Positions 12,042 through 13,097 of a stretch of 64,000 nt of DNA are shown here, in pieces (the stretch's first letter is position 1; the number at the start of each line of letters is the position of its first letter). The translations under genes were made by a program, and so were the position numbers. The notes under the pieces were generated by a model. It worked only from the letters and a program-made list of their open reading frames with translations, made no database searches and was not told the DNA's origin. The DNA lies in the IMG/VR virus record IMGVR_UViG_3300047160_007939, positions 32,001-96,000 of that record. One strand, written 5' to 3'. This DNA comes from a virus.

Positions 12042-13097
12042 TCAAACCAGCACTACTTTGGTGTCTACCCCCATTGTAGCGACAGTCTGCATAGCAGTCA
12101 ACCACGGCTCGATGAGGTCCACGAGCTGCCCGGCAAGAGCCTCGCGTCCCAGCTTCAGGCAGTCGTTCCAATCCATCCCCTCGGGCGGAGACAGGCGCAT
12201 CAGCTCGCAGCCGTGCTCCCGCAGCTCCGTACCCCAGCGGTAACCGGCCACGTTCCCCGCCGAGATGCCGCGCCGGTCAGGTCGGTCGTTGTCACTGGCT
12301 ACCAATACAGGCTGATGGGCCAGCTTCTCTCCCACCCACTCCGCGAGGTGGCAGCCCATCGCGGCAATGGCCGGGTAGCCGGCTGCCGCAAGCGAGAGCG
12401 CGTCGATGGGTCCTTCCACGAGGATGGTCGGTTTACAGCTCCACGCCTGGACCGCAGAGAAGACGCCCAGGCGGGCTTCACCCCTGGTTCGGGTCTTCGG
12501 GTACTCCCCGTCGAAGTAGCGGCCCTGCACGGCCACCAGGACGCCTTCCCGGTCGCGGATGGGAAAGAGCACGGCAGGCCGGCCATACCAGTCGGGATGA
12601 TAGCGAACGCCCGATGGCTCACAGTCTCCAACCATCAGCCCCCGCCGGATGAGATAGGCTTCGCCTTCGGTTCCGGCTAGGTGGACTACCTGCCGGAGCT
12701 TCTTGCGCCAGTCATCGCTCTTCTGGTGCGGTTCTCTCGTAGGAGACGGCTCGCTTTGCCCGTTCGGTTCTCTCGGCAGCAACGGCTCGCTCATTGAGCG
12801 CGGTTCTCTTGTACCTCTCGGCTCGGGCGGAGCGTCGTCATCGGTCAGGTACGTATCCGGCCTGGGCCTTCGCTGCCGGCGCGGACGAAAGACGCGGCTG
12901 TGCCAGTCCTGCCCGTCGAGGCGTCCTTTCGTGTGGCAGCGGTGGCAGATGTACTCGCCCGTCTCCATCTTCACCGCGAGGGAGCGATGGGCGCTGTCCT
13001 TCCACTTGCTGTCCCCGCAGAACGGGCAGCAGAAGCGCCGCTCGTACTTCTGGAGCGGGGCGTGCGGGTCGTAGGCTTCCAGCTCTTCGATTGTCAC
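12042..13097 (-). CDS. DNA primase (Zn finger + TOPRIM)
   Basis: CPFC..H..CHRC zinc finger; LVEGPIDALSL and DND TOPRIM motifs. Confidence 0.85.
   Translation of the reverse strand: MTIEELEAYDPHAPLQKYERRFCCPFCGDSKWKDSAHRSLAVKMETGEYICHRCHTKGRLDGQDWHSRVFRPRRQRRPRPDTYLTDDDAPPEPRGTREPRSMSEPLLPREPNGQSEPSPTREPHQKSDDWRKKLRQVVHLAGTEGEAYLIRRGLMVGDCEPSGVRYHPDWYGRPAVLFPIRDREGVLVAVQGRYFDGEYPKTRTRGEARLGVFSAVQAWSCKPTILVEGPIDALSLAAAGYPAIAAMGCHLAEWVGEKLAHQPVLVASDNDRPDRRGISAGNVAGYRWGTELREHGCELMRLSPPEGMDWNDCLKLGREALAGQLVDLIEPWLTAMQTVATMGVDTKVVLV
12729..12825 (-). repeat. TIGR-like dual-repeat array 1 (in-frame inside the primase linker)
   Basis: 6 alternating CGGTTCTCT/CGGCTCGCT repeats (+ strand reading) with 9-nt unique spacers. 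Confidence 0.85.

Follow-up and report, generated by a model that had tools for sequence, protein, structure and literature searches.

The gene at 12042–13097 of the window (the whole 64,000-nucleotide stretch that was analysed) lies on the minus strand of a 119.5-kb soil phage genome and encodes a predicted DNA primase of 351 amino acids. A Zn ribbon (ca. residues 14–58) is followed by a linker (70–126), a DUF7146 domain (127–197) and a TOPRIM domain (225–314). The Pfam match to Toprim_2 (E 2.4e-10; 41.1 bits with a cut-off of 22.1) is accompanied by matches to Toprim_3 and DUF7146, also above cut-off, and the PHROG match is to DNA primase (E 8e-29). 222 homologues were found at E<=1e-3; among the 120 matches listed, the Zn ribbon and TOPRIM are in one chain, and the homologues are single chains covering ca. 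90–100% of the query. In an alignment of 26 sequences, C24, C51, C54, E228, D269 and D271 are invariant and C27 nearly so. This gene is also the only TOPRIM match in the phage genome. With a Zn ribbon and the acidic TOPRIM residues in one chain it is, judged by its sequence, a DnaG-type TOPRIM primase. In the AlphaFold2 model the pLDDT is below 50 over residues 70–126, which are modelled as a disordered linker, and this linker is hypervariable in both length and sequence among the 26 aligned homologues.

Part of the linker is encoded by a dual-repeat TIGR array (12715–12824, minus strand), three complete 36-nt units in the sense orientation and in frame, corresponding to residues 92–128. [quoted passage not shown] Then follow the first loop core, AGAGAACCG (12801–12809; Arg-Glu-Pro), the first full edge core, AGCGAGCCG (12783–12791; Ser-Glu-Pro), a second loop core (12765–12773), a second full edge core (12747–12755) and a third loop core (12729–12737). 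[quoted passage not shown] The two full edge cores are the predicted processing sites; they are assigned as edge repeats by the complementarity of terminal bases, after Xu et al. (2026, bioRxiv 10.64898/2026.09.09.750476). All five 9-nt cores are perfect, and all five steps are exactly 9+9 nt.

The preliminary description had been of six stop-free repeats at 12729–12825, with a step of exactly 18 nt. On the plus strand CGGTTCTCTC and CGGCTCGCTC do alternate over 12729–12828 with an exact 18-nt step (0, 1, 0, 0, 1 and 2 mismatches), and the minus strand is stop-free, reading EPRGTREPRSMSEPLLPREPNGQSEPSPTREP within the ORF 12042–13097. The step, the open frame and the location thus stand, while the number and the limits have to be changed. 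There are five full cores and two truncated edge repeats; in the supposed sixth repeat (12819–12828) only GAGCCG fits, as the 5'-truncated edge, and at the other end the spacer and AGCGA extend the array to 12715. The idea that a module with a length divisible by three would preserve the reading frame agrees with the 36-nt units and with the frame being open through the array.

The parsing rules applied here – box-like ends, and different middles for edge and loop repeats – come from Faure et al. (2025, Science, PMC12045711) and Xu et al. (2026). Loop core and edge core alternate, with 9-nt spacers and a 36-nt unit, as in dual-repeat arrays. Both cores begin with AG and end with CCG, and so have in common a box D-like start and a box C-like end; for comparison, the repeats of TasR start with UG and end with CCA (Faure et al.). 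The 4-nt middle of the edge core is CGAG, with complementary ends (C..G), and that of the loop core is AGAA, with ends that are not complementary (A..A). The truncated edges are in register at both ends of the array. This arrangement is a habit of the phage: six of its seven arrays start with (G/A)AGCCG and then a 9-nt spacer, and AGCG stands in the register of a 3'-truncated edge after six of the seven (a 3'-truncated edge is present in 6–7 of 7).

Repeats of this type are far more frequent in the window than expected by chance, with 137 motifs at no more than one mismatch (43.3 ± 6.3 in 100 shuffles) and chains at 18-nt spacing of up to nine members; the longest such chain was 1 in 20 mononucleotide shuffles of the window. 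The sequencing runs listed as containing this DNA, 24 from soil, are all DNA runs, and none is recorded as RNA. Contigs from two other soil runs span the array with no differences (X16 record 5, 12156–13012; X19 record 13, 12437–12832), which rules out an assembly artefact. Across 11800–13300, contigs of four runs showed no differences, indels or joints, though those of X10 and X24 stop short of spanning the array. There is little doubt that this is a real segment of TIGR array, in frame, inside an intact primase gene.

A repetitive, proline-rich linker could also be an ordinary protein-level repeat, a Glu-Pro-rich low-complexity segment produced by duplication of codons and unrelated to guide RNAs. 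The linkers of the homologues are likewise rich in Pro, Glu and Arg, and that of P0003, which is 65% identical, contains EPGKEPEPKP. However, a linker with a period of 6 or 12 residues is found in just one of the 120 listed homologues, which is the phage's own primase. The cores are identical to those of five non-coding or partly coding arrays and of one array that is read in another frame, and truncated edges flank the array. The choice of codons is also highly atypical. Arg-Glu-Pro is written AGA GAA CCG in all three cases (P ~4e-7 under the codon usage of the phage), although AGA accounts for 13 of the 272 codons for Arg and GAA for 54 of the 205 for Glu. Identical cores read Glu-Arg-Thr or Glu-Arg-Ala, in the other frame, in a gene for an HTH regulator, and are non-coding elsewhere. 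A conservation that follows codons, which would have spoken for a protein-level origin, was therefore not found; conservation of the array tracks nucleotides, and an origin by duplication of codons is extremely improbable.

The preliminary description had also proposed that the array is an in-frame insertion in the linker between Zn finger and TOPRIM, to be recognised by alignment of homologues. The alignment bears this out. The segment is missing in 25 of 25 aligned homologues, P0003 included, and in L005, a syntenic relative contig found in a metagenome scan, with a linker that contains no TIGR core at all; in the phage the frame is open across it. A linker common to homologues from Tas-free phages was not seen, the linkers of the homologues (on contigs of less than 2 kb) being without the array. 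The GAGCCG at its 5' end represents Glu-Pro codons that are retained, as APPEP, in the nearest homologue. A primase-only search of viral contigs found no relatives, and an alignment search with the primase gave distant matches alone, at 23–43% identity. These comparisons indicate that the array took the place of part of the linker that connects the Zn ribbon with TOPRIM in the primase.

On another reading the primase is split or dead: Zn ribbon and TOPRIM would belong to two genes, or to one decaying gene, and the array would be an intergenic one that is open by accident. An open frame over such an array is not rare (see below), and a 250-residue product beginning at Met102, inside the array, was called on five contigs. 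Those contigs are no longer than 2.4 kb, however, and the full-length gene was called on 19 and 10 contigs. The two flanks share one frame, the homologues are the single chains described above, and the Zn and TOPRIM residues are all kept in what is the only TOPRIM protein of the phage. It is very unlikely that the gene is split or dead.

The single tas gene of the genome, tasA (34168–35334, minus strand), is on the same strand as the primase array and 21.3 kb away, not adjacent. It encodes a protein of 388 amino acids that was identified by sequence and fold matches to PDB entries as a nuclease-free Nop-domain Tas, the sequence matches being to TasR (9mty; E 2.6e-10, profile E 3e-23) and TasH. 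The AlphaFold2 model has a pLDDT of 89.9; the elements listed are all helices, with no strand of three or more residues. When the model was searched against the PDB with Foldseek, the top ten matches were all TasH or TasR. The profile alignment with TasR begins at TasR residue 117, past the RuvC part. On the model, TasA has a Tas-like Nop-domain fold without an HNH or RuvC domain. Its Tyr352 and His359 align by profile with Tyr289 and His296 of SpTasH, with an identical spacing of seven residues. Among 34 relatives of TasA, His359 is present in all 34 and Tyr352 in 25, with Phe in the other nine.

The phage has seven arrays with 79 cores in total, all on one strand, and the six others cluster around tasA. 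Like the primase array, each of them is on the minus strand and touches or overlaps coding sequence. The largest, with 22 cores (24935–25355), begins at the TGA that ends the gene for the large terminase subunit. A second embedded array, of five units (ca. 29193–29373), lies within a gene for a triple-HTH regulator of 479 amino acids (28775–30214); residues 337–479 of this protein have no homologue except fragments of itself by word and exhaustive search, and no ancestral array-free form was found. An array of 11 cores (32441–32660) begins 2 nt past a stop codon (32662–32664). The array directly downstream of tasA (34027–34178) has its truncated edge within the final codons of that gene, whose stop codon falls in the first spacer, while the one upstream (35373–35555) has the stop codon of a methyltransferase gene (35536–35538) in its first loop core. 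In the remaining array, of 16 cores (36372–36652), the stop of ORF 36614–37042 is located 51 nt inside. With the terminase, tasA and methyltransferase stops at or inside the first array elements, it is plausible that the arrays are transcribed together with the genes.

No rho-independent terminator follows the primase array on the minus strand, where the coding sequence continues, and no promoter-like site belonging to this array was found. TIGR arrays 'typically' end with a rho-independent terminator (Faure et al.). Near the arrays, counts of promoter-like and terminator-like sites are about at the shuffle level, the terminator-like sites numbering 3 with 2.4 expected; one terminator-like hairpin is on the plus strand at 12788–12800. 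An Rfam scan of the window gave four tRNAs and nothing else.

If the array RNA came from the plus strand it would be antisense to the primase, which it might regulate, and the primase mRNA would not be a guide precursor. The plus-strand hairpin is the one feature in its favour, nothing direct being found, and terminator-like sites are no more frequent than in shuffled sequence. The box grammar (start xG, end CCG) and the order of the truncated edges fit the minus strand alone. The neighbouring genes are on the minus strand, and the array-sense strand is the tas-sense strand in all four related Tas loci. An antisense array RNA is thus very improbable. None of these four loci has an array embedded in a long ORF, nor is there a primase on these viral fragments.

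The reading that is favoured, with some confidence, is that the stretch has a dual use, as primase linker and as guide RNA precursor. A three-unit array of the phage's own TIGR-TasA system would have entered the primase gene at its hypervariable, disordered linker and replaced part of this linker. Since the array is in the sense orientation and in frame, the primase would still be made whole, with the array translated as a tether rich in Glu, Pro, Arg and Ser in which each 9-nt core and each 9-nt spacer supplies three codons. Because the array is in the primase gene, the primase mRNA contains two full and two truncated edge repeats. TasA may bind the units of this mRNA and cut in the edge repeats by way of Tyr352 and His359; the case for guide production and cutting of the mRNA is built on the array grammar, the sense orientation and the Tyr/His pair kept in TasA. 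Cutting would be expected to free one to three 36-nt tigRNAs, the middle one at least, and the primase message from which they come would be lost. The level of TasA could then decide how far the transcripts yield guides and how far primase. It counts against this reading that full edge repeats, which are required in minimised arrays (Faure et al.), stand here on both sides of the middle unit alone, and that the four related Tas loci are without an array in a long ORF.

Eukaryotic box C/D snoRNAs are hosted in introns of protein-coding genes. The arrangement proposed here resembles theirs, in that guides bound by a Nop-domain protein would be matured out of a protein-coding transcript. With snoRNAs, which are intronic, message and guide are both recovered, whereas with an array in translated sequence a given molecule can be either processed or translated, not both.

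A less probable but still serious alternative is that the array is a passenger – a TIGR fragment that recombined into a tolerant, disordered linker of variable length and is translated, but is no source of guides, being poorly processed or without targets. Any cutting of the mRNA would then be an unselected side effect. The hypervariable linker would suit such an event, and the 5' junction falls on the pre-existing GAGCCG codons, which suggests microhomology. The array has three units only, is 21 kb from tasA and lacks a promoter or terminator of its own, and contigs from the population have no variation that would reveal selection. For 43 units, the whole genome (119.5 kb) was searched for self-targets that combine the reverse complement of spacer A with spacer B, in either order and 0–6 nt apart, and there was no signal above shuffled controls: one match at one mismatch, an overlap inside an array, and ten at two mismatches (2–10 in ten shuffles).

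The statistics of the reading frame bear on the passenger array as well. The core repeats contain no stop in the sense frames, though in one frame a T preceding the core creates TGA. 92% of the non-embedded 9-nt spacers are stop-free in the frame of the primase array, which gives P ~0.61 for six spacers; since an open frame is thus probable by chance, openness alone is no proof of selection, and of the two openness probabilities (P ~0.61 and 0.18) neither is significant alone. All 14 steps in the two embedded arrays are 18 nt long, while the other five arrays have 11 deviating steps among 65 (P = 0.075); the lack of frame-shifting steps is no more than suggestive. A passenger is harder to reconcile with the five cores and both truncated edges being intact, with a rare Arg codon used three times, when cores elsewhere often have 1–2 mismatches; the perfect cores could, however, merely reflect a recent insertion. 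The array is built completely at its start and its end, like a normal one, the same arrangement is found in a second gene, that of the HTH regulator, and binding by TasA is to be expected for any transcript with such a grammar.

In most respects the system resembles the phage dual-repeat TIGR arrays with TasA described by Faure et al. (PMC12045711): alternating short repeats, 9-nt spacers and 36-nt units; box D-like and box C-like ends common to both repeats; truncated edges at the array ends; tas-sense arrays, a nuclease-free Nop-domain Tas, and a phage as host. It differs in the placement of the arrays. Those of Faure et al. are upstream and/or downstream of tas with a terminator at the end, while the primase array is 21.3 kb away inside a coding sequence and has no terminator, and all seven arrays of the phage, which are dispersed, abut or overlap coding sequence. 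Self-processing of pre-tigRNA by Tyr289 and His296 was demonstrated for SpTasH (PMC13421893; also cited in Xu et al.), and for the present TasA would follow from the aligned Tyr352 and His359.

Intragenic tigRNAs inside the tas coding sequence have been described by Xu et al. (2026, 10.64898/2026.09.09.750476), in the case of BlTasA by small-RNA-seq. As there, the units in the primase gene leave the frame unbroken and, in the AlphaFold2 model, fall in a disordered region between structured elements, and one transcript may serve as message and guide precursor. The cases of Xu et al. are in tas and mostly of the stem-loop type, while the hosts here are the genes for a primase and an HTH regulator, and the arrays are dual-repeat ones; in this phage only the array downstream of tasA overlaps tas, in its last codons.

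A broader reading of all seven arrays is speculative and improbable. As all of them touch or lie in coding sequence, the arrays might be parts of messages and not separate genes, with the primase and HTH regulator mRNAs as substrates of TasA. Rising TasA would then sever both while harvesting guides, an RNA-level timer that would tie guide production to switching off both the priming of replication and early regulation. The primase site, filled in this phage and empty in P0003 and L005, might represent array seeding caught in the act, by copying onto GAGCCG Glu-Pro codons that mimic half an edge repeat.

The natural roles of TIGR-Tas systems, described in 2025, and the origin and movement of their arrays are open questions, and the origin of the arrays has been called an enigma (Faure et al., PMC12045711). 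The array-free close homologues of this primase offer a comparison of empty and filled sites for the birth of an array. The primase gene shows that a dual-repeat array can be accommodated at a distance from tas, within a presumably essential replication gene that it leaves unbroken; the unit length is a multiple of three, and the repeats are by themselves free of stops in the sense frames. A message and a guide precursor can be one molecule, and the activity of TasA may in this way be coupled to expression of the primase.

No literature joining tigRNA with a primase was found, and placement in a primase gene is new relative to the published intragenic tigRNAs, which are so far in tas; arrays in other genes may be listed in the supplementary Table S1 and fig. 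S4 of Faure et al. or in TIGRSafari of Xu et al. The survey of Xu et al. (10.64898/2026.09.09.750476) extends up to 10 kb on each side of tas, so an array 21 kb away would escape it. Surveys that look only next to tas, or only between genes, will give too low a count of arrays.

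On the plus strand at 12729–12828, CGGTTCTCTC and CGGCTCGCTC alternate with an exact 18-nt step and 0, 1, 0, 0, 1 and 2 mismatches. This pattern is not due to chance: chains at this step grow to as many as 9 in the real sequence, and none exceeded 1 in 20 shuffled versions of the window. The motif count at one mismatch was 137, versus 43.3 ± 6.3 in shuffles. An assembly artefact is excluded by contigs from two further soil runs, which cross the whole stretch and match it exactly. [quoted passage not shown] Truncated edges bound whole arrays (Faure et al. 2025, PMC12045711), and the ends found here agree. 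The preliminary description had six repeats in exact 18-nt alternation; the alternation stands and the array is real, but what was counted as the sixth repeat is the 5'-truncated edge, and there are a further 14 nt of array beyond the span described. The stop-free minus-strand reading described there was confirmed, and it lies within the primase ORF (12042–13097, minus strand, 351 aa).

There are seven such arrays with 79 cores, all on one strand, and the six besides the primase array are also inside the window. On the minus strand the 9-nt cores are AGAGAACCG and AGCGAGCCG, with 9-nt spacers. Because an edge repeat has complementary ends around its 4-nt middle (a rule given by Xu et al. 2026, bioRxiv 10.64898/2026.09.09.750476), AGCGAGCCG is the edge repeat and AGAGAACCG the A-rich loop repeat. 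Six of the seven arrays open with a 5'-truncated edge as the primase array does, and six of seven close with AGCG. In related Tas loci on viral contigs, arrays of near-identical repeats were on the tas-sense strand in 4 of 4 cases, on which basis the minus strand, also the primase sense strand, is the likely RNA strand. Expression of the array from the opposite strand is contradicted by these loci, by the array anatomy on the minus strand, and by the repeat ends – both cores start with AG and end with CCG, the counterpart of the UG start and CCA end of TasR repeats.

Five arrays are not embedded in genes (24935–25355, 32441–32660, 34027–34178, 35373–35555 and 36372–36652, minus strand). Each has at least one spacer of 10–11 nt or a 10-nt edge variant (AGCGGAGCCG, AGCGAAGCCG or AGCAGAGCCG), resulting in units of 37–38 nt, which are found in neither of the two embedded arrays. 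In the array at 24935–25355 the spacer tccattggg occurs three times consecutively (25040–25103), and two edge cores are adjacent there, as if an 18-nt half-unit had been duplicated locally; arrays may grow by such duplication or by slippage.

The primase ORF had Toprim_2, Toprim_3 and DUF7146 matches above the Pfam cut-offs, a weak Zn-ribbon match, and matches to PHROG DNA primases. There were 222 homologues at E ≤ 1e-3; among the 120 matches listed, on which chain coverage was judged, most were single chains covering ca. 90–100% of the query. In an alignment of 26 primases, the Zn-ligand cysteines and TOPRIM acidic residues are fully or almost fully conserved, and the linker between them varies in sequence and length. 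The single chains, the retained Zn and TOPRIM residues, and the status of this gene as the only TOPRIM match in the 119,514-bp genome all contradict a split or dead primase; because of the last, the primase presumably must function. The AlphaFold2 model shows no secondary structure for residues 70–126, where pLDDT falls below 50; on either side it exceeds 90.

The residues encoded by the array are absent from all 25 other aligned primases, including the nearest homologue, which is 65% identical and has 21 fewer residues between residues 92 and 128. On L005, a metagenome contig, the gene of a third close relative is followed by the same two genes as in the phage; its linker is short, and a search there for a TIGR core found none. 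The in-frame insertion proposed earlier is thus borne out, the close relatives being compared on contigs under 2 kb. At the 5' junction, GAGCCG also encodes the Glu-Pro of an APPEP motif that is kept in the nearest homologue; the array therefore starts on codons that were already there and that resemble half of an edge repeat. L005 has GAGCTT at this place. From these sequences, the array may have been copied into the primase via microhomology with the GAGCCG codons. Met102 (12792–12794), an ATG within an array spacer, is the start of 250-aa gene calls on five short public contigs – probably an effect of the short contigs, but possibly an internal start for a TOPRIM-only product.

In the primase frame the cores are whole codons: AGA GAA CCG gives R-E-P, and AGC GAG CCG gives S-E-P. 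Across eight coding segments of the phage taken as reference, Arg is written AGA in 13 of 272 codons and Glu is written GAA in 54 of 205, yet R-E-P is written AGA GAA CCG three of three times (P about 4e-7). A triple-HTH regulator gene (28775–30214) has a further array embedded in frame (five units, about aa 281–341), whose cores are read in another frame (E-R-T / E-R-A). Conservation is thus at the nucleotide and not the codon level. Both observations contradict a repeat that arose purely at the protein level, as do the truncated edges, the cores common to other arrays, and the linker periodicity of 6 or 12 residues, which among the 120 homologues listed occurs only in the phage's own protein. 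The preliminary description had named a linker shared with primases of Tas-free phages, or conservation following codons, as evidence against dual coding; neither the insertion comparison nor the codon comparison refuted that reading. Beyond its array, the HTH regulator has an acidic, coiled-coil-like C-terminal part, for which two homology searches found no homologues. A cluster of five tRNA genes (17852–18953, minus strand; Lys-ttt, Asp-gtc, Ile-gat, one with an odd anticodon loop, and Trp-cca) has none that reads AGA, the rare Arg codon imposed by the embedded arrays.

The TIGR arrays of this phage are intrinsically easy to translate. The cores are stop-free in every sense frame, though a T directly preceding a core creates TGA in one of them, and the 51 non-embedded 9-nt spacers are stop-free in 92%, 84% and 75% of cases across the three frames. 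By chance, the six primase spacers would all be open with P of about 0.61, and the ten HTH-array spacers with P of about 0.18. In the remaining five arrays no frame is read through the cores; 11 of their 65 steps depart from 18 nt, versus 0 of 14 for the embedded pair (P = 0.075 only). Arrays can therefore land in genes, and an open frame is weak evidence of selection. On a Tas-related viral contig (L003, 2146–3507), the tas open frame extends ca. 60 codons upstream of its likely Met start through part of the preceding array; this stretch is probably untranslated, but is a further instance of array readability.

The virus record has direct terminal repeats and phage genes for a portal, large and small terminase subunits, dCMP deaminase, HNH endonuclease and methyltransferases. 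Its only tas gene, tasA (34168–35334, minus strand), lies amid the arrays. The product is identified as a nuclease-free TasA, because its sequence matches a solved TasR (9mty) and TasH, its AlphaFold2 model (pLDDT 89.9) has only helices among the elements listed, and the best 10 matches in a fold search of the PDB were all TasH or TasR. SpTasH processes its own pre-tigRNA by means of Tyr289 and His296 (PMC13421893), and a profile alignment places this pair on Tyr352 and His359 of the phage TasA. The latter is His in 34 of 34 relatives; the former is Tyr in 25 and Phe in the other 9.

Several gene stops fall at or within the opening elements of arrays. In the largest array, the truncated edge shares bases with the TGA of the terminase large subunit gene (25354–25356). 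The tasA stop (34168–34170) is in the first spacer of the array directly downstream of tasA, and a DNA methyltransferase stop (35536–35538) falls within a loop core. In one case a loop-core variant, AGTGAACCG, itself provides the TGA. The stop of ORF 36614–37042 (36614–36616) is 51 nt into an array, and a fifth array begins 2 nt past a stop codon. No array has space for its own promoter, and promoter-like and terminator-like sites by the arrays were at shuffle level only. The arrays look like parts of messages in this phage, so the primase mRNA could plausibly double as a guide precursor.

TasA would bind array units within the primase transcript and cut it in the edge repeats, as suggested by the alignment of Tyr352 and His359 with the processing pair. 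The middle unit would be the surest product (tigRNA), since minimised arrays required full edge repeats (Faure et al. 2025, PMC12045711). A cut transcript could not yield full-length primase, so guide and primase yields would trade off. The main rival is a passenger insertion – tolerated and translated, but of no use as a guide source – which seems less likely than a role as guide precursor. A search of the phage's own genome for spacer targets of the proposed guides found none.

TIGR-Tas systems are already known (Faure et al. 2025, PMC12045711). Guide units within the tas coding sequence itself, in disordered regions and with the frame intact, are described in a preprint (Xu et al. 2026, 10.64898/2026.09.09.750476), mostly as stem-loop arrays and less often dual-repeat ones. 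The host gene here is a primase instead of tas, and its array is 21.3 kb from tas, while that survey reached at most 10 kb either side. In the main texts searched, that preprint was the only work found on intragenic TIGR arrays, and no paper was found joining tigRNA with a primase.

The terminase large subunit (25354–28617, 1087 aa) has a sub-threshold Pfam Intein_splicing match at residues 160–437 (25.3 bits, cut-off 35.8). In the GC-rich left part, long tandem repeats at 3672–4578 and 6519–7063 (periods of 480 and 240 nt, 73–76% identity) may encode repeated domains of a structural protein. A 25-nt tandem repeat of 2.8 copies (54135–54200) coincides with the GC-skew sign change at ca. 54 kb, and may have a regulatory or origin-like role at a strand switch.
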